44,064 nt of DNA from a virus (Duplodnaviria; Heunggongvirae; Uroviricota; Caudoviricetes), in the IMG/VR virus record IMGVR_UViG_2711768014_000006; one strand, given 5' to 3'. The notes beneath the pieces are model-generated. The model was not told the DNA's origin. It searched no databases and saw only the letters and a program-made list of their open reading frames with translations. Below are positions 10,607 through 42,359 of this stretch, one piece after another. How positions within the stretch are numbered: position 1 is the first letter of the stretch; the number at the start of each line of letters is the position of its first letter. The translations under genes and the position numbers were made by a program.

Positions 10607-10677
10607 TATTCCGCAAATCCTGCCCCCTTTTCCTCACGGTTACGCTGACTCAGAGAACACCATGAGACAGCGTAACA

Positions 10678-18068: not shown

Positions 18069-18150
18069 GGTCAGTGGCGGGGGTCGAACCCGCATACATG
18101 ATCCACCCGGAGGCAGGCACCGACTTTACCAGTTAAGCGTACACTGACCG
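18069..18150 (-). other. tRNA-like element (acceptor helix, canonical D-arm and T-arm, no anticodon stem)
   Basis: Minus strand: 9-bp helix CGGTCAGTG/CACTGACCG, D-arm GCTT-AACTGGTA-AAGT, T-arm GCGGG-TTCGACC-CCCGC; the 29 nt in between cannot form a 5-bp anticodon stem. Confidence 0.3.
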
Positions 18151-18662: not shown

Positions 18663-18839
18663 TGGTTTAAGGTATGCAAACGTATTACCTTACCCCCTTC
18701 AGGCGCGTGTCGTGATTTTCTAACCTGTATTTAACGGGCTTTAAAATCTGCGTGAAGCGCCTTTCTCATTCCCCCCCTGTCAGCACTTTCTGAAGTCCCG
18801 CAAAACCAGCCCCAAAAATACCCGGCTTATGCTGCCGGT

Positions 18840-34177: not shown

Positions 34178-34750
34178 ATGCTGATTGGGTATATCAGGGT
34201 GTCAACAAATGACCAGAATACGGCGCTACAAAGAAATGCGCTGGAATGTGCAGGATGTGAGCTGTTTTTCGAAGACAGAATAAGCGGTAAGACAAGGGAG
34301 CGTCCCGGACTTAAACGCGCATTAAAGCGACTCCGGCCAGGGGATACCCTGCTGGTCTGGAAACTGGATCGCCTTGGACGCAGTATGCAGCACCTTGTCC
34401 TTTTAACAGAAGAACTCCGGCAACGCGGCGTTAACTTCCGCAGCATTACGGACAATATTGATACATCCACTCCCATGGGACGTTTCTTTTTCCATATAAT
34501 GGGCGCGCTGGCGGAAATGGAGCGGGAACTCATTATTGAACGTACACGCGCGGGTCTTGCTGCTGCCCGTGCTCAGGGGCGTCATGGCGGCAGACCTCAG
34601 AAACTGACAGAGAAAGAGCGGGAGCAAATCGCCCGTTTGCTGGCTAATGGCGAGTCCCGTAAACAAATCGCACTGATATTTGATATTGGCCTTTCCACCC
34701 TTTATCGTTATTTTCCTGCCTCACCAGCTCCGTCACCAAAAGTACCGTGA
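34178..34750 (+). CDS. gin: Serine DNA invertase (Gin/Hin/Pin family)
   Basis: MLIGYIRVSTNDQNTALQ... with catalytic Ser and C-terminal HTH; sits just outside the right inverted repeat. Confidence 0.9.
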   Translation: MLIGYIRVSTNDQNTALQRNALECAGCELFFEDRISGKTRERPGLKRALKRLRPGDTLLVWKLDRLGRSMQHLVLLTEELRQRGVNFRSITDNIDTSTPMGRFFFHIMGALAEMERELIIERTRAGLAAARAQGRHGGRPQKLTEKEREQIARLLANGESRKQIALIFDIGLSTLYRYFPASPAPSPKVP

Positions 34751-34835: not shown

Positions 34836-36890
34836 ATGTCAGACTCCAAGTGGAAAATGCTCTCCGCCATGCCCGGAGAGTTTTCAGTCAAGGTTGCCGG
34901 TGGCACGGTGGCATTTATTGAAAGCCCTTTCCGCCCTTCGGGTAATAAAGGGGGGATCACCTTCGCAGACTGCGTGATCCGCTTCAGCACGAAAGAGCCA
35001 TTATGGGTAATGCCGGTATCCGGTAATCCCAGTGCAGAAATCACCAGTTCAGGCGTGACTGGCATCATTCCAATCACATCTGACGTGGCCGGAACGCTCA
35101 CGCCCTCCGACTGGAATGCACCGGATAACGCCGGGCCTTCCGGTAGCACGAATGGCAGCAGTTCAGAGCCGGAATATTACTTTGTTGTCATTCTCGCGGG
35201 TCAGTCAAATGGCATGGCCTACGGCGAGGGGCTGCCGTTACCGGATTCGTTTGACCGCCCGGACCCACGCATTAAGCAACTGGCACGCCGCAGTACGGTA
35301 ACGCCCAACGGTACGTCGTGTACATACAACGACATCATTCCGGCAGACCACTGCCTGCATGATGTTCAGGATATGAGCGGGATAAACCACCCGAAAGCTG
35401 ATCTGGCAAAAGGCCAGTACGGGACTGTCGGTCAGGGGTTGCATATTGCCAAAAAACTGCTTCCCTATATCCCACAGAATGCCGGGATACTTCTGGTGCC
35501 CTGTTGTCGTGGCGGGTCAGCATTCACCACTGGAGCCGACGGCTCATTCAGTGAGGCCAGCGGTGCTTCCGCTGATTCTTCACGCTGGGGGGCCGGTAAA
35601 CCTCTGTATCAGGACCTGGTAAGCCGCACCAAAGTCGCGCTGGCGAAAAACCCGAAAAACAAACTTCTGGCTGTGGTCTGGATGCAGGGAGAGGCAGACC
35701 TTGCCTCAGGAAGCCAGCAGCATAATAGTTTATTCACGGCCATGGTTCAGCAGTTCAGAACTGACCTGGCTCCGCTTGCTGCGCAGTGCGTGAGTGGAAA
35801 TGCCACCACGGTGCCGTGGATTTGCGGTGATACCACGTATTACTGGAAAAACGCTGGCACCGATAAATATGAGGCAGTATACGGTGGCTACAAAGGCAAG
35901 GAAGCACAGAAAATTTTCTTTGTACCGTTCCTGACGGATGAGAATGGACAGAGCACGCCAACGAATGCTCCGGCGGAAGACCCGGATATTGTGGCTGTCG
36001 GGTATTACGGTGCAGCATCCCGAACCCAGGGCAGTTTTGTTTCGACACAGCGTGACAGCCATTTCAGCTCATGGGCACGCAGGGGCGTCATTTCAGACCG
36101 TCTGGCCTCAGCTATTATGCTCCATGCAGGGCGCACGGCTGAACTGATGCGTGGGCAGACCGTGACACCACCGGATGAGAAGCCGTCACCTGATACACCA
36201 TCAAAACCGTCCACGCCACCCGCAGACACCACGACGATGAGTACGCTATTTGCTTACCGGGCATCTGAGTCTGAAGGACGGTTGACACCACAGGGTTGGG
36301 CTGCCGGAGGTGGCAAGGCTCAAATCGTGGATGATGCCGGAGCCAGCGGGGGTAAGGCAATGAAACTGACCAAGGAAACAGGAAGAGCCCCCTGGTACCT
36401 TGAGCATGATGCTGGTAATGGTGCGGACCTGCTGGGTAAAGGTGGTCTTGTCAGTTGTCGTTTTAAACTCGATGGCGCGCTTACGGCTAATCAGTACGCA
36501 CTGGCGCTGTACTGGCCGGTTTCTGCCCTGCCGCAAGGGGTTACTCTGGAAGGAAATGCCGGTCATAACCTGCTGGCATCGTTCTACGTACAGAGCGATG
36601 CCACAGACCTTAACGTGATGTATCACAAAGGAAACACGGCGCAGAACACGAAGCTGGGGTCATTCGGCGCATTTAATAACGAATGGCATACGCTGGGCTT
36701 CCGTTTTGCCGGTAACAACAGTATTGAGGTGACGCCGGTCATTGATGGTAAGGACGGGACACCATTCATGCTGTCGCAGTCTCCGGTCGGCACGTTTACG
36801 GCAGACAAGTTGCGCGTGACCGATATCACTAAAAATGCGACTTACCCGGTACTGATTGACAGTATCGTGGTGGAAGTGAATAACGCGTAA
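34836..36890 (+). CDS. SGNH/sialate-O-acetylesterase-domain protein with N- and C-terminal extra domains (NanS-p-like prophage esterase candidate)
   Basis: Motif YFVVILAGQSNGMAYGEGLPLPD (GQSN esterase motif) about 130 aa in; Pro/Thr-rich linker then a C-terminal beta-rich domain; 684 aa. Confidence 0.6.
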   Translation: MSDSKWKMLSAMPGEFSVKVAGGTVAFIESPFRPSGNKGGITFADCVIRFSTKEPLWVMPVSGNPSAEITSSGVTGIIPITSDVAGTLTPSDWNAPDNAGPSGSTNGSSSEPEYYFVVILAGQSNGMAYGEGLPLPDSFDRPDPRIKQLARRSTVTPNGTSCTYNDIIPADHCLHDVQDMSGINHPKADLAKGQYGTVGQGLHIAKKLLPYIPQNAGILLVPCCRGGSAFTTGADGSFSEASGASADSSRWGAGKPLYQDLVSRTKVALAKNPKNKLLAVVWMQGEADLASGSQQHNSLFTAMVQQFRTDLAPLAAQCVSGNATTVPWICGDTTYYWKNAGTDKYEAVYGGYKGKEAQKIFFVPFLTDENGQSTPTNAPAEDPDIVAVGYYGAASRTQGSFVSTQRDSHFSSWARRGVISDRLASAIMLHAGRTAELMRGQTVTPPDEKPSPDTPSKPSTPPADTTTMSTLFAYRASESEGRLTPQGWAAGGGKAQIVDDAGASGGKAMKLTKETGRAPWYLEHDAGNGADLLGKGGLVSCRFKLDGALTANQYALALYWPVSALPQGVTLEGNAGHNLLASFYVQSDATDLNVMYHKGNTAQNTKLGSFGAFNNEWHTLGFRFAGNNSIEVTPVIDGKDGTPFMLSQSPVGTFTADKLRVTDITKNATYPVLIDSIVVEVNNA

Positions 36891-37034
36891 GCAGGATAAA
36901 AAAATGCCGCCGGTAAGGGAAAACAAGAAACCGGCGGCAAAAAGATCGTTATATCCAAAGCAAAAAATGCAGTGCACCTTTTTACCTAACAGATATTACC
37001 GGTGTCAACACCATGTCAATAATTGGGAGGGATA

Positions 37035-37217
37035 ATGACATTTTTACAGCTTATTTTATTGTATTTCTGCACGGCAGTATGTGCGTTATATCTGGTGAGT
37101 GGTGGTTATAAGGCCATCAGAAATTATGTTCGCCGCAAAATTGAGGACGCAGCAGCTGAAAAACTCAGTAAAACAGCGCAGGTAACTCCGCTCCCAAAAG
37201 ACCCGACCCAGCCCTGA
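37035..37217 (+). CDS. Small membrane protein
   Basis: ATG at 37035 after GGGAGGG; N-terminal hydrophobic helix FLQLILLYFCTAVCALYLV. Confidence 0.4.
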   Translation: MTFLQLILLYFCTAVCALYLVSGGYKAIRNYVRRKIEDAAAEKLSKTAQVTPLPKDPTQP

Positions 37218-37252
37218 TTGCAGGGCTTTATTCCCGCATAAGGAGGATATAC

Positions 37253-37507
37253 ATGCCAGAAATTAAAGGCACCGTCACTGAAGACCTGGTAAAACAGGCA
37301 CTGTATTCCGGTGAAGTAAATAAGTTGCTGAAAGCGCAGGTCCGCAAGGATTTTGAGGCACAAATCGACACTTACGTTGATGAAGTGCTGGCAAAACTTA
37401 TTGGGCCAGCAGTTGCGGCCAGTGATGCTGATAATGAGCCGAAAACCGACGCGCAGCCAGAGCAACCAGACCCGGCTCAGCCCGGAACTGACAGTACCAT
37501 GATGTAA
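37253..37507 (+). CDS. Small acidic hypothetical protein
   Basis: AAGGAGG RBS; 84 aa with Pro/Asp/Glu-rich tail. Confidence 0.45.
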   Translation: MPEIKGTVTEDLVKQALYSGEVNKLLKAQVRKDFEAQIDTYVDEVLAKLIGPAVAASDADNEPKTDAQPEQPDPAQPGTDSTMM

Positions 37508-37513
37508 CAATAC

Positions 37514-37539
37514 AAACCGGTGGTGTCCTCTGCCGGTTT
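37514..37539. terminator. Possible bidirectional terminator hairpin between convergent small genes
   Basis: AAACCGG-TGGTGTCCTCTG-CCGGTTT between the plus gene ending at 37507 and the minus gene ending at 37675. Confidence 0.35.
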
Positions 37540-37674
37540 GACACTAATGAAAACATCTTTGCCGCTATCCAGCCATATGTAATCGCTGGATAGTATTTCG
37601 TATTCAGAAATATAGCTGCTTATGGAGCAGTCAATCCTGCTTCCCCATCCGGGCAGGCAAATGAACCGGTATCA

Positions 37675-37968
37675 TTAGTCCGATTCACGCTTTTGTAGAA
37701 TCGTTCCCAGAATGCTATACAGCTCATTAGCCTGTTGCTCCATCATTGAGACGGAGGCTATACGGTGCAAAGTGATTTCAGGAGGTGGCACACCTCCATC
37801 TTCTTGCTGTGGAGGAAAAACATAAGATTTAATAAAAAAGTTGAAGCATATGAACTCTCCCGCACTCGAACTGTATTTGCAGGCATCTGAATAATCGGAA
37901 AAATAATCATTATAGATTTCCGCATTTTCAATCATTTTTCGATTTCTCGTCGTTACATGATTGTCCAT
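37675..37968 (-). CDS. Hypothetical protein (minus strand, AT-rich)
   Basis: 97-aa ORF with AAGAGG RBS, divergent from com-mom. Confidence 0.4.
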   Translation of the reverse strand: MDNHVTTRNRKMIENAEIYNDYFSDYSDACKYSSSAGEFICFNFFIKSYVFPPQQEDGGVPPPEITLHRIASVSMMEQQANELYSILGTILQKRESD

Positions 37969-38091
37969 AGCAGCCTCTTACGCTGGCAATTAACCAATTG
38001 ACTTCTATAAATTAGTTGATTTGTTTGCTTTGCGGTATTCAAATGTACAATCATTCAGCACTTATGCGTTACAGCACCGTTTAAAATTAGT

Positions 38092-38177
38092 GATCAAACT
38101 CATAAATTTTCGCTAATGACATTTCGTGTTATTTGTTGTATCAATTAAATAAATCAAATCGATCGTTTTTGTCGATC
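38092..38177 (+). promoter_or_regulatory. Three GATC sites upstream of com-mom (candidate Dam-methylation-sensitive control region)
   Basis: GATC at 38092, 38161 and 38174 in an AT-rich divergent intergenic region; parallels the Mu mom control region. Confidence 0.35.
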
Positions 38178-38224
38178 GATTGAGTGATAAAGATATCAAC
38201 AACAAAGCAGGAGGTTATGCGGCC

Positions 38225-38425
38225 ATGTATCGAAACATACGGTGCCGACATTGTAACAAGCTACTGGCACGAGCCAGCTTCAGTTATCTGGAAGTTAAAT
38301 GTCCGCGCTGTAAAACCCTCAATCAAATCACATCTCAGAGCGCCACAGAGCACCCCACATACACAAGGAAATCCTGTCGTGGGGAACAGAAAGCAAGTTA
38401 CATCCCGTATCATCAGCACGCCTGA
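38225..38425 (+). CDS. com: Com-like zinc-finger translational activator
   Basis: [35 protein letters not shown]... closely resembles Mu Com (IRCKNCNKLL...IRCPRCK); AGGAGG 10 nt upstream of the ATG. Confidence 0.7.
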
Positions 38426-39116
38426 ACTTATTCACTATAACGACAATATCGTCGGTTATGGCTCCCGTGAGTTACGGGTTGAGACAATAAGTTGCTGGCT
38501 GGCCCGGCTGGTCGTCGTCAATAAACATTACAGCCATCGTTTCGTAAATAATTCCTACCTTCATCTGGGCATATTTTCAGAACGGGAGCTGGTTGGCGTA
38601 ATGCAATGGGGTTATGCCCTTAATCCAAACAATGGTGCACGCGTCGTAACTGGCACGCAGAACCGCGAATATATGGAGCTTAACCGGTTATGGCTGCATG
38701 ACTGTATGCCGAGAAACTCCGAATCAAGGGCAATCAGTTACGCGCTCAAACTAATCAGACAACTTTATCCGCAGGTGCAGTGGGTTCAGTCGTTTGCAGA
38801 TGAGCGTTGTGGCTGTCTTGGTGTCGTGTACCAGGCAAGCAATTTTGATTATGTAGGCAGTCATGAAACAACATTCTATGAACTTGATGGCGAGTGGTAT
38901 CACGAGATTTGCAAGAATGCAATCAAACGAGGAGGACAGCGAGGTGAACATCTGCGGGCTAATATCGACAGAGCCAGTGTTCATAAATTCCGTCAGTTTC
39001 GTTACATCCGGTTTCTGGACAAGAGAGCCAGAAAACGCCTTAACACAAAGCTATTCAAAGTCCAGCCTTACCCAAAACCACAAACAGTTAAAACTGGTTT
39101 GAAAGAGAGTGAATGA
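38379..39116 (+). CDS. mom: Mom-like DNA modification protein; start uncertain (the open frame extends upstream to 38184)
   Basis: Frame overlaps the 3' end of com as in Mu; a GTG at 38379 gives about 245 aa, close to the ~241 aa I recall for Mu Mom. Confidence 0.55.
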
Positions 39117-39161
39117 ACGCTTAAAAACTCATTCTAAAACTCAAAAGAAAAGCGCCGATTT

Positions 39162-39230
39162 AGTATCAAATAAGTTGCGTATCGGCGTTTTTCAGCGGTA
39201 TCAAATGAAATGCAAATCGGTATCAAAAAA
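39162..39230 (-). repeat. Right-end transposase binding sites (three contiguous inverted copies of the TTTGATAC motif)
   Basis: AGTATCAAA (39162-39170), CGGTATCAAA (39197-39206), TCGGTATCAAA (39218-39228); contiguous like Mu R1-R3. Confidence 0.5.
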
Positions 39231-39274
39231 ATCGCCGCGCTATAGACAGCCTAAGCGGCTGCTGACCTCCCTGA

Positions 39275-39830
39275 CCATGCTGTAAATCTCTTTATCCTGG
39301 TTGTCACAGAATAAGCCCGGTAAAATACGGGCTTATGAACGACATCTCTTCTGACGACATCTTCCTGCTGAAACAGCGCCTTGCCGAACGTCAGTTGAAA
39401 ACGAAACCGCTGCTGAAATCCCTGGAAAGCTGGCTGCGTGAAAAGATGAAAACCCTGTCGCGACACTCAGAACTGGCGAAAGCGTTCGCATATGCCCTGA
39501 ACCAGTGGCCGGCGCTGACGTACTATGCAGATGATGGCTGGGCTGAGGCGGACAATAACATCGCTGAAAATGCGTTGCGGATGGTCAGTCTGGGCCGCAA
39601 AAACTACCTGTTCTTCGGTTCGGATCATGGAGGAGAGCGGGGAGCGCTGCTGTACAGCCTGATCGGGACGTGCAAACTGAACGGAGTGGAGCCAGAAAGC
39701 TACCTCCGCTATGTCCTTGACGTCATAGCCGACTGGCCGATAAACCGGGTCGGCGAACTGCTCCCCTGGCGCGTAGCACTGCCGACTGAATAACACATTC
39801 CCGTCAATACGGTTCTTGCTGCACGCTTAC
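39275..39830 (+). mobile_element. IS66-family element, right portion, ending at the IS terminus
   Basis: Reverse complement of 39813-39830 is GTAAGCGTGCAGCAAGAA, the GTAA-type terminal repeat of IS66-family elements as I recall it. Confidence 0.55.
39335..39793 (+). pseudogene. IS66-family transposase TnpC, C-terminal fragment (about 150 of ~520 aa)
   Basis: ...ADDGWAEADNNIAENALRMVSLGRKNYLFFGSDHGGERGALLYSLIGTCKLNGVEPESYLRYVLDVIADWPINRVGELLPW matches the conserved C-terminus of IS66 transposases; the N-terminal two thirds are absent. Confidence 0.75.
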
Positions 39831-39846
39831 GGTAAACACCCCGGAA

Positions 39847-40875
39847 GTGGTGATGCACACTGTTGCTGATGTGATGACAGGAAACGATGGTGAATACTGT
39901 TTCCATGCGCGGACTGGAAAATATGGTGTGTATCTGAAACCGGGCTGGCACAACGAGTACAACGTTGGCGACATTGCTGTATACGACGACTCAAAGCCCG
40001 GCACGCTGAATGACTTTCTGATTGCTCCTGATGAGGGCGACCTGAAACCGGATGTCGTCAAACGCTTTGAGGAAATGGTGGCGCAGGCGCAGCAGAGCGC
40101 CGGGGCAGCAGGCGAAAAGGCACAACAGAAGTCCCGGGATAATCTGGGGCTGAAAAGTGCGGCCACGATGGAAGCACAGAGCGACATTTACGACCGGACA
40201 AAAGGCCGTCTGGCGATACCCGGCGCATTCGGCTTTGGGTGTGCTTTTCTGCCTGAAGATGTTATCCGTTTTGACACTAAGAGTGATTTCCTGGCCTGGG
40301 TAAGGAATGCGCTGCCAGGTGAATATTCCGTTGCTGGCCCCTACGACATCATCATACCCGACACACGGTTTGAAGGGGTGCTCAGCATCCGGTGGACTGA
40401 TGCACGCCCTGAGACAACAGAACCGAGGTACAGAGCCAAATCCCTTACTTTTTACGGCATTAACGGCCCCATTTATCACACCCGCTACTGCTACTGGCCC
40501 ATATCCAGACTGACTGGCTGGGTGAAAATAAATATAACCACAGAAGATATTATTTACAGAATCGTGGCGAGCTCTGTCTGCAACAGATGGGGAGACCCTG
40601 ACATTGGCGGGCTGATTATTGCTGCGTACCAGGGAGAAGCTGACGGTGATAAAGTCATCAGACTTGTCAGGGGGCAGTCATACAGAGGCTCACGACTGGG
40701 ACCGGTGGGGATTTCAGTGCCCAGTACTCCCACCGGAACGTATATAGCATCCCCACAATTTTTCATTACGGGATGTTCAGAGCATTCATTACCGGGGTCA
40801 TATTGCGCCCTGTCCGGGGTGCCGGATGCTCATGTCTCTGGCGCAATGCCCGGGCTTTTTATTCGCACATCGTGA
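39847..40875 (+). CDS. Phage tail-fibre-like protein, probably a C-terminal fragment truncated by the IS66 insertion
   Basis: 342-aa ORF beginning 17 bp after the IS66 terminus, followed by a chaperone-like gene. Confidence 0.4.
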   Translation: MVMHTVADVMTGNDGEYCFHARTGKYGVYLKPGWHNEYNVGDIAVYDDSKPGTLNDFLIAPDEGDLKPDVVKRFEEMVAQAQQSAGAAGEKAQQKSRDNLGLKSAATMEAQSDIYDRTKGRLAIPGAFGFGCAFLPEDVIRFDTKSDFLAWVRNALPGEYSVAGPYDIIIPDTRFEGVLSIRWTDARPETTEPRYRAKSLTFYGINGPIYHTRYCYWPISRLTGWVKINITTEDIIYRIVASSVCNRWGDPDIGGLIIAAYQGEADGDKVIRLVRGQSYRGSRLGPVGISVPSTPTGTYIASPQFFITGCSEHSLPGSYCALSGVPDAHVSGAMPGLFIRTS

Positions 40876-40885
40876 GGAATGCACC

Positions 40886-41798
40886 GTGGAAATTAAAAAA
40901 ATCATTAATCCCCGTTATACCGAAAGTGGCGCAGTAGACTGTGACGTTTTTTTTGACGACAGGGACCAGGCAGTCCCCTACACAGCCACCGCTGATGATG
41001 TCGCACCGACGGGTCAGCGAATCTGGCAGGAACTGCAAAGTGGCAAATGGGGTGAGATAGCCCCATTCACTGTGACACCAGAAATGCTGGAAGCGGCCAG
41101 AGAGGCCAGACGTCAGGAAATTGAAGCATGGCGCACAGAACAGGAGGCGAAGCCGTTCACGTTTGAATGGAATGGTCGTATCTGGAATGCTGGCCCCGAC
41201 TCACTGGGCCGCCTGTCCCCGGTAGTCATGCTGGCAAAATCTGTCACAGCACAAACNNNNNNNNNNNNNNNNNNNNNNNNNNNNNNNNNNNNNNNNNNNN
41301 NNNNNNNNNNNNNNNNNNNNNNNNNNNNNNNNNNNNNNNNNNNNNNNNNNNNNNNNNNNNNNNNNNNNNNNNNNNNNNNNNNNNNNNNNNNNNNNNNNNN
41401 NNNNNNNNNNNNNNNNNNNNNNNNNNNNNNNNNNNNNNNNNNNNNNNNNNNNNNNNNNNNNNNNNNNNNNNNNNNNNNNNNNNNNNNNNNNNNNNNNNNN
41501 NNNNNNNNNNNNNNNNNNNNNNNNNNNNNNNNNNNNNNNNNNNNNNNNNNNNNNNNNNNNNNNNNNNNNNNNNNNNNNNNNNNNNNNNNNNNNNNNNNNN
41601 NNNNNNNNNNNNNNNNNNNNNGATGCCGATAATCAGCAGGTGAAACTGTCGATGCCGGAACTGGAAGAACTGGCGGCAGCAATGGTGCAGGCGCAGGTCG
41701 ATCGCAACGATGAGATTTATCGCCGTCAGCGTGAAATGAAAGAGGAGCTGAGTGGTCTGGAGGATTTGGGAACAATTAGAGCGTTTGATGTTACGTAA
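40886..41798 (+). CDS. Tail-fibre assembly/chaperone-like protein, interrupted by the assembly gap
   Basis: GTG start after GAGGAA; coding resumes after the N run and ends at TAA 41796-41798; frame continuity across the gap cannot be checked. Confidence 0.35.
41257..41621. other. Assembly gap (365 N)
   Basis: Run of N characters. Confidence 0.99.
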
Positions 41799-41996: not shown

Positions 41997-42359
41997 TGGT
42001 GGAGCTGGCGGGAGTTGAACCCGCGTCCGAAATTCCTACATCCTCGGTACTACATGCTTAGTCAGTCTTTACATTCGCTTGCCAGCTGCGGACGGACACG
42101 CCACTAACAAACTAGCCTGATTAAGTTTTAACGCTTCAACCCCAGGCAGGGCTTCCACGCGATCTCTTTTGGGTTTGACCTCTCTTGATCCCCGTCCTAA
42201 GAGCGGAGGCTAGGGAGAGAGGGCTCTAAGCAGGTTATTAAGCTGCTAAAGCGTAGTTTTCGTCGTTTGCGACTATTTTTTGCGGCTTTTTACGAGGCCA
42301 ACCGCCCCTCGGCATGCACCTTGGGTTTCGCAAATCCCGTCGAATCCAGAATCAGCCCC
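41997..42359 (-). ncRNA. ssrA: tmRNA (SsrA), 363 nt
   Basis: Reverse complement reads GGGGCTGATTCTGGATTCGACGGG...tag-peptide region...GGACGCGGGTTCAACTCCCGCCAGCTCCACCA, the enterobacterial ssrA sequence. Confidence 0.95.

Follow-up and report, generated by a model that had tools for sequence, protein, structure and literature searches.

A com-mom module of the Mu type in a Mu-like prophage: predicted RNA switch, conserved GATC pair and probable Dam/OxyR control

The com and mom genes and their prophage

The window analysed here, a stretch of 44,064 nucleotides, contains a Mu-like prophage whose last genes before the right end are com and mom (Table 1). From left to right, the prophage carries a repressor, homologues of transposases A and B, gam, a Mor/C-family activator, lysozyme, head and tail genes, a gin-like recombinase for an invertible segment (34178-34750) and finally com-mom. 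The two genes overlap by 47 nt in different frames, com reaching its stop at 38425 well after mom has begun at its GTG at 38379, and the mom stop codon lies 128 bp from the prophage end at 39244. In fact, the whole region from 37600 to 39244 is 100% identical to a prophage of E. coli 23CRST047, in which PGAP calls both genes at matching coordinates. Both products have identical counterparts in RefSeq, where WP_014334043.1 is assigned to the Com family and WP_000528246.1 is named "tRNA(Gly)-dependent adenine aminoacyltransferase Mom". The name that RefSeq and PGAP give to the product of 38225-38425, "Com family DNA-binding transcriptional regulator", is misleading, because Com is known from the literature (PMC6483171) to activate translation by binding RNA.

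Table 1. Position of the com-mom genes, of their predicted control elements and of the prophage that carries them
Feature	Position	Strand	Remarks
Mu-like prophage	612-39244		ends TATA...TATA
GATC	38092-38095		probably outside the module
Conserved regulatory block upstream of com	38112-38181	+	nearly invariant in 14 variants (IMG/VR, E. coli); flanks diverge
OxyR-consensus-like candidate site, 37 bp	38140-38176		two half-sites, the second carrying both GATCs
Perfect 9-bp inverted repeat, AATCGATCG-N7-CGATCGATT	38157-38181		holds GATC 38161 and 38174, 13 bp apart
Variable 13-nt spacer, palindrome to conserved leader	38182-38194	+	from comparison of close relatives
Shine-Dalgarno AGGAGG of com	38209-38214	+	read from the sequence; 10 nt before ATG 38225; invariant in relatives
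com	38225-38425	+	ATG start, 66 aa; putative zinc-ribbon translational activator of mom
Predicted Com-target hairpin, GCGC/CACAGA/GCAC	38340-38353	+	CCACAGAG (CC-ACA-GAG, 38343-38350) spans the loop
Translation-inhibition stem, CCCAC/GUGGG	38354-38358 / 38379-38383	+	MFE fold; GUG start paired
mom	38379-39116	+	GTG start, 245 aa; putative GNAT-fold, Gly-tRNA(Gly)-dependent adenine N6 modification enzyme
Terminator-like hairpin downstream of mom, GAAAAGCGCCGAU ... AUCGGCGUUUUUC	39147-39193	+	fold of 39117-39200: -23.2 kcal/mol, z = -3.6
Prophage right end with three TTTGATAC repeats	39163-39244	-	repeats at 39163, 39198 and 39220; presumed transposase-binding sites

The Com product matches the Pfam family Zn_ribbon_Com (PF10122) at 7.5e-13, with 48.2 bits against a cut-off of 22.9, and the PHROG "gpCom control of modification". 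Its identity to Mu Com is 44%, and it keeps all four zinc-ligand cysteines (C7, C10, C26 and C29, in a CxxC ... CxxC arrangement). Its gene lies directly upstream of mom and overlaps it, mom being the gene that a member of the Com family would be expected to control. A PDB sequence search with Com gave no match at E <= 0.01, and an NCBIfam scan of Com and Mom matched no model, although PGAP names both.

Mom is recognised along its entire Pfam profile (PF25680, 7.8e-78; 261.2 bits against a cut-off of 27.1; profile positions 1-202 of 202), by PHROG 1384 at 2.8e-83 and by the structure of Mu Mom itself (PDB 8BV8 chain A, E = 2.4e-123), residues 5-233 of the query lying on residues 4-232 of the chain. 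In a pairwise alignment it is 77% identical to Mu Mom, and Y28 as well as the residues that are essential or important in the Mu enzyme along with its HTH-like insertion (W48, H58, Y59, R111, S124, D149, R151, Y159 and W181; PMC13219725) are all identical here. The insertion (Mu residues ~175-209), which Mu Mom needs for activity (PMC13219725), aligns without gaps and with 28/35 residues identical. The preliminary description of this DNA had proposed a Com-like zinc-finger protein followed in an overlapping frame by a Mom-like ORF, as arranged in Mu, and on this point Pfam, the alignments with the Mu proteins and the PDB match all agree with it; when we looked for a want of Mom-family similarity in the product of 38379-39116, we found the similarity to be strong.

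In alignment with Mu, the mom GTG at 38379 falls on the accepted GUG start of Mu mom, which corresponds to Delta10 in the 241-aa annotation. The mom frame is open across all of com, forming a 310-aa ORF (38184-39116) that we considered as an extended Mom or a fusion. We rejected it because this frame is closed by stops in Mu and in the Edwardsiella, Symbiopectobacterium, Scandinavium and Neptunomonas relatives and because a gap of only 2 nt separates the Shine-Dalgarno sequence from its in-frame ATG (38217).

A 2026 study reported that Mom moves glycine from Gly-tRNA(Gly) to the N6 of adenine in dsDNA (PMC13219725). By homology to Mu Mom, the enzyme encoded in the window would act late in lytic growth, transferring glycine from Gly-tRNA(Gly) to adenine N6 in double-stranded phage DNA. 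The glycyl group would then rearrange to yield N6-carboxymethylamino/acetamido-adenine (6-NcmdA), and DNA modified in this way would resist many restriction enzymes. Judged by its sequence, the com-mom module is thus an already known one, an ordinary anti-restriction cassette of the Mu type that is annotated in identical public genomes.

Several features of the prophage bear on its present state. The motif TTTGATAC occurs 7 times in the window, where 0.96 copies would be expected; the left-end copies are at 629, 724 and 776, and the three right-end copies are inverted. In other genomes, matches to the prophage stop at 39244 and matches to ISEc8 begin at 39245, and the right end abuts differing host genes in 18 complete genomes (for example sgrR, ydcF, bcsA, bglJ, citF and flgL). 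These varied host neighbours fit an apparently active transposable phage. Could the cassette instead be the inactive remnant of a decaying prophage? The prophage does lie inside a degraded copy of ISEc8, and mom has been lost in some relatives, the Mu-like insert of an Stx2c phage among them, but here both ORFs are intact and all key residues are present, both phage ends carry repeat sets, the prophage gene set is complete (from the ORF layout and the annotation of a near-identical copy) and identical copies are found at many chromosomal sites. We therefore regard decay as very improbable, the least probable of the explanations that we weighed.

The prophage is inserted in the 3' end of the ISEc8 tnpB gene (601-624 and 39240-39250). 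Its flanks share only GACA (4 bp), with no obvious 5-bp target duplication of the Mu type; a 4-bp duplication is annotated as well for the related Mu-like insert in the Stx2c phage. On the + strand, 39335-39793 encodes a 152-aa remnant of an IS66-family transposase, in which an internal deletion has brought the first 12 residues next to the final ~140 of the DDE domain. A tmRNA gene (ssrA, tag ANDENYALAA) occupies 41997-42359 on the - strand, 2.7 kb past the prophage end, and this places the ISEc8 remnant and the tail-fibre-like ORFs at 39847-41632 in an ssrA-adjacent island.

Within the prophage, a three-gene cassette on the + strand (34836-37507), of a kind typical of lambdoid and Stx prophages, lies between the gin-like recombinase gene and com. 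It encodes a 684-aa NanS-p-like protein (SASA sialate-O-acetylesterase and DUF6645), a DUF1378 protein and a DUF826 protein. The three genes have the look of a moron cassette within a Mu-like phage; Mu itself has nothing at this place between gin and com. A tRNA-like element lies antisense between head genes at 18069-18149 (- strand), with an 8-bp acceptor stem, a T-arm GCGGG/UUCGACC/CCCGC and an aberrant anticodon arm. The identical sequence carries the PGAP label "tRNA-OTHER"; ARAGORN and Rfam made no call on the element.

A predicted RNA switch for mom translation

In Mu, Com binds a short hairpin that presents the sequence CC(N)2-3GAG, beside a translation-inhibition stem that holds the mom GUG (PMC6483171). 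Both elements have predicted counterparts in the window. The Com-target hairpin is at the position homologous to the Mu hairpin AUGC/CUGCGA/GCAU, and directly after it comes the CCCAC strand of a stem whose GUGGG strand contains the mom start codon. The mom Shine-Dalgarno sequence AAGGAA (38365-38370) is enclosed by the resulting stem-loop.

We aligned the RNA of four lineages, those of the window, Mu, Scandinavium and Edwardsiella, and found 97% of the cells to pair, compared with 22-56% in slid controls. The two elements are preserved in different ways. In the hairpin, 3 of the 4 stem pairs show compensatory double changes across the four lineages; for example, a His codon CAC becomes Cys UGC opposite an Ala codon GCC that becomes Thr ACU. 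In the CCCAC/GUGGG stem, all 5 pairs are invariant in the four lineages although the loop lengths differ. The hairpin copy of the window lineage has one C.A mismatch, which weakens it. An Rfam scan of the whole window returned only the tmRNA and no family for the Com target or the leader. On this comparative evidence, the Com-target hairpin and the start-codon stem are conserved as in Mu.

Mom is toxic, and for this reason its translation is gated. In the mechanism that we envision, the mom GUG and its Shine-Dalgarno sequence would be locked in the CCCAC/GUGGG stem until Com, made from the same mRNA, binds the neighbouring hairpin through CC-NNN-GAG. Such binding would open the stem and so free the start codon.

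A conserved GATC pair and the question of the mom promoter

The region between com and the divergent ORF upstream measures 256 bp and has a G+C content of 34%. The divergent ORF (37675-37968, - strand), which shares this intergenic region with com, encodes 97 aa (86 aa in PGAP) and had no Pfam, NCBIfam or PHROG match; a sigma-70-like promoter is predicted for it at 37989-37960.

GATC occurs in the intergenic region at exactly 38092, 38161 and 38174, the coordinates given in the preliminary description. In Markov simulations, the probability of at least three GATCs in 256 bp was 0.03-0.07 and that of a GATC pair no more than 13 bp apart was 0.02-0.04. An argument from chance is therefore weak for this cluster, and conservation is the stronger evidence. 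As for the window as a whole, GATC is depleted, with 132 copies against 167 +/- 11 expected from dinucleotide shuffles; all 100 shuffles had at least 132, and 35404-39622 contains only 4.

The pair at 38161 and 38174, held in the perfect inverted repeat, aligns with GATC2 and GATC3 of Mu at the identical spacing of 13 bp, and a GATC-N9-GATC pair is also present upstream of com in Edwardsiella, Symbiopectobacterium and Pantoea loci. Among the occurrences of the palindrome in IMG/VR, 29/34 lie 43-49 bp upstream of a com ORF; we set the other five matches to the pattern aside as chance, since their spacers differ and their contexts are unrelated. The GATC at 38092 is absent from relatives of the O157/Stx-phage type, whose homology begins near 38112-38130. 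Thus, the earlier likening of this region to the Dam/OxyR-controlled mom promoter of Mu is borne out for 38161 and 38174 but does not extend to 38092, which is not conserved and lies outside the regulatory block.

The candidate OxyR site matches 13/20 specified positions of the consensus ATAGnTnnnAnCTAT-N7-ATAGnTnnnAnCTAT, a score reached in 3/400 random 230-bp windows. The best match in Mu is likewise 13/20; it spans the three GATCs of Mu and has an equal register on GATC2 and GATC3. The OxyR site of the Mu type has three GATCs spaced by 18 and 13 bp, of which the two that form the 13-bp pair are kept here, the position of GATC1 being non-GATC. The Mu homologue of the palindrome is a known OxyR/Dam site (PMC3378877; PMC2909390), and in P22 gtr a 13-bp GATC pair inside one OxyR half-site has been shown experimentally (PMC2909390). 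Dam/OxyR control of com-mom is plausible from the sequence, and the case for such probable control is well supported by homology, given the homology of the palindrome and its GATC pair, an OxyR match equal to that of Mu and the arrangement of P22 gtr. OxyR bound to the 37-bp site would probably hold off transcription, with the two Dam sites carried by the promoter-proximal half-site, and Dam methylation of GATC 38161 and 38174 would block OxyR binding.

The GATC cluster and palindrome might of course have no regulatory meaning, being a product of chance in an AT-rich spacer or the hairpin of a leftward (antisense) terminator. In keeping with this, the enrichment statistics are modest (P = 0.02-0.07), and a scan flags the palindrome with its T-rich tail as terminator-like on the - strand. 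We nevertheless find it improbable, because the palindrome and the 13-bp GATC spacing have been kept from Mu to Edwardsiella, Symbiopectobacterium and Pantoea while their surroundings have not, because the IMG/VR occurrences are so regularly placed in front of com, and because the Mu homologue has an established function. An intrinsic terminator on the minus strand was rejected as the main role of the palindrome since it is conserved upstream of com and homologous to the Mu OxyR/Dam site.

We are rather confident that the module in the window represents a com-mom operon in the place usual for one, as the last genes of a Mu-like transposable prophage before its right end, with mom translation predicted to be gated by Com and transcription probably controlled by Dam and OxyR.

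How transcription starts is a different matter. The last GATC is about 46-51 bp from the com ATG, against 74-78 bp in Mu, which brings the element ~28 bp closer to com. Relatives fall into two distance classes, a Mu type with the last GATC at -78 to -83 and a short type at -51 to -57; the spacing in Edwardsiella is short too. The elements of Mu Pmom include a C site TTATgccccAATAA, a -35 ACCACA, a T6 run and a -10 hexamer TAAGAT, the site for C (a Mor-family protein) lying between the OxyR site and the -35, with a poor -35 and -10 and a 19-bp spacer between them. In an alignment with Mu, the C site, the -35 ACCACA and the T6 run have no counterparts upstream of com. The late-promoter motif of this phage, CCGCAAAnCCnGCCCC, has exact copies at 10611 (upstream of lys) and at 18798 (upstream of the protease gene), and a search of 37969-38224 allowing up to 3 mismatches did not find it. 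A sigma-70 promoter scan called nothing on the + strand upstream of com; by eye, there is a weak sigma-70-like pair that the scan did not call, ATGACA at 38116-38121 and TATCAA at 38139-38144, 17 bp apart.

Downstream of the palindrome, the spacer 38182-38194 has at least 6 versions and one 6-bp insertion among close relatives, while the adjoining blocks are invariant. It contains TAAAGAT at the position of the Mu -10 TAAGAT, counted from the com ATG.

The Mor/C-family activator of this phage (10184-10606) shares 41% identity with Mu C and 31% with Mor. It is the single annotated member of its family, located directly before lys and after gemA (gp16), and Mu has two, Mor and C. The late promoters at 10611-10626 and 18798-18813 consist of CCGCAAAnCCnGCCCC followed ~20 bp on by GGnTTAYGCTG. 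One activator and two late promoters that share a motif suggest a two-tier rather than a three-tier transcription cascade. At com itself, C-type activation is without sequence support, since the C box, the -35 hexamer, the T6 run and the phage's own late-promoter motif are all missing; the dependence on a Mor/C-family activator that had been implied earlier is not evident from a sequence with no C- or Mor-type box upstream of com. As to the OxyR-like site, it may lie partly over the core promoter, or else in the leader.

These observations raise an alternative for the same module, namely that its transcription has been rewired, the OxyR/Dam site lying over the core promoter, as in P22 gtr, or in the early transcribed region, as in agn43. 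We hold this to be possible but rather doubtful. Its consequence, equally doubtful in our view, would be a direct repression by OxyR in which an activator of the Mor/C type is not needed and expression might be bistable. Only ~51 bp separate the last GATC from the com ATG, where Mu has 78 bp, and the spacing in Edwardsiella is equally short; the C box and the late-promoter motif are absent; conservation of the block stops with the palindrome, beyond which 13 nt vary. In one relative (L061), the palindrome is followed immediately by a good extended -10 (TGgTATCAT), and P22 gtr has its GATC4 at -33 (PMC2909390). On the other hand, candidate hexamers are weak in every placement, both in the scan and by eye, and the C-like activator is just 41% identical to Mu C, so its site here could be unrecognisable. 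The toxicity of mom also argues for tight late control.

More speculative still is a general form of this proposal, to which we give somewhat less credence. Among the Mu-like phages of this E. coli lineage, which is widespread, and also in Edwardsiella and the other relatives whose spacing is short, the promoter of mom would have lost its C-activator module, leaving the Dam/OxyR half-site pair on or just downstream of the core promoter, and the resulting direct epigenetic switch, possibly heritable, would operate in addition to Com. If this were true, control of mom would resemble that of P22 gtr or agn43 and would not run through the late-activator cascade of Mu.

Comparison with Mu and other known systems

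With the Mu-type reading of the module that we prefer, the prophage carries an apparently functional Mom anti-restriction system, which has little importance beyond its correct annotation. Work on Mu has already established the mechanism, a Gly-tRNA-dependent hypermodification of adenine that is gated by Dam/OxyR and by the RNA switch on which Com acts. The only aspect that appears non-standard is the layout of the promoter relative to Mu. As read from these sequences, three elements make up the core of the module that is conserved across genera: the Com-target hairpin, the stem that pairs the mom start codon and the two GATCs at their 13-bp spacing. Conservation does not extend to the activator part of the promoter, and this suggests a more plastic transcriptional control of mom than the Mu paradigm implies.

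The likeness to Mu com-mom (Mup54/Mup55) extends to the gene order, the place by the right phage end and an overlap whose 47 nt compare with 50 nt in Mu. The two phages also share the GUG start within a CCCAC/GUGGG stem, the Com hairpin before that stem and, inside an OxyR-like site, a palindrome that carries a pair of Dam sites at a 13-bp spacing. They differ in that Com is 4 aa longer here, Mu GATC1 is missing and the upstream neighbours are a divergent orphan ORF and a nanS-p-like cassette, where Mu has gin.

Closer relatives are the Mu-like E. coli prophages (O157:H7, Stx-phage-inserted elements), which are 92-100% identical in 18 complete genomes; they have other insertion sites, the prophage here lying in an ISEc8 remnant, and those of the O157 type differ upstream of ~38112. 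Among the Mu-like relatives in IMG/VR, the regulatory block is alike in 29 contigs. Other phages combine the two genes differently. Aeromonas phage pAEv1818 (L007) has mom without com, downstream of a Q antiterminator; in phage Chuche (L009), com is paired with a DNA methyltransferase in place of mom; and in the Mu-like insert of the Stx2c phage (L006), com is kept and mom is replaced or disrupted.

Finally, the upstream region invites comparison with the Dam/OxyR switches of P22 gtr, agn43 and opvAB. The sequence gives no evidence of alternative OxyR sites or of phase variation upstream of com-mom, and, unlike those systems, the module has one candidate OxyR site with two GATCs. What it shares with them, here by sequence alone, is a 13-bp GATC pair in an OxyR half-site near or over the promoter (PMC2909390).
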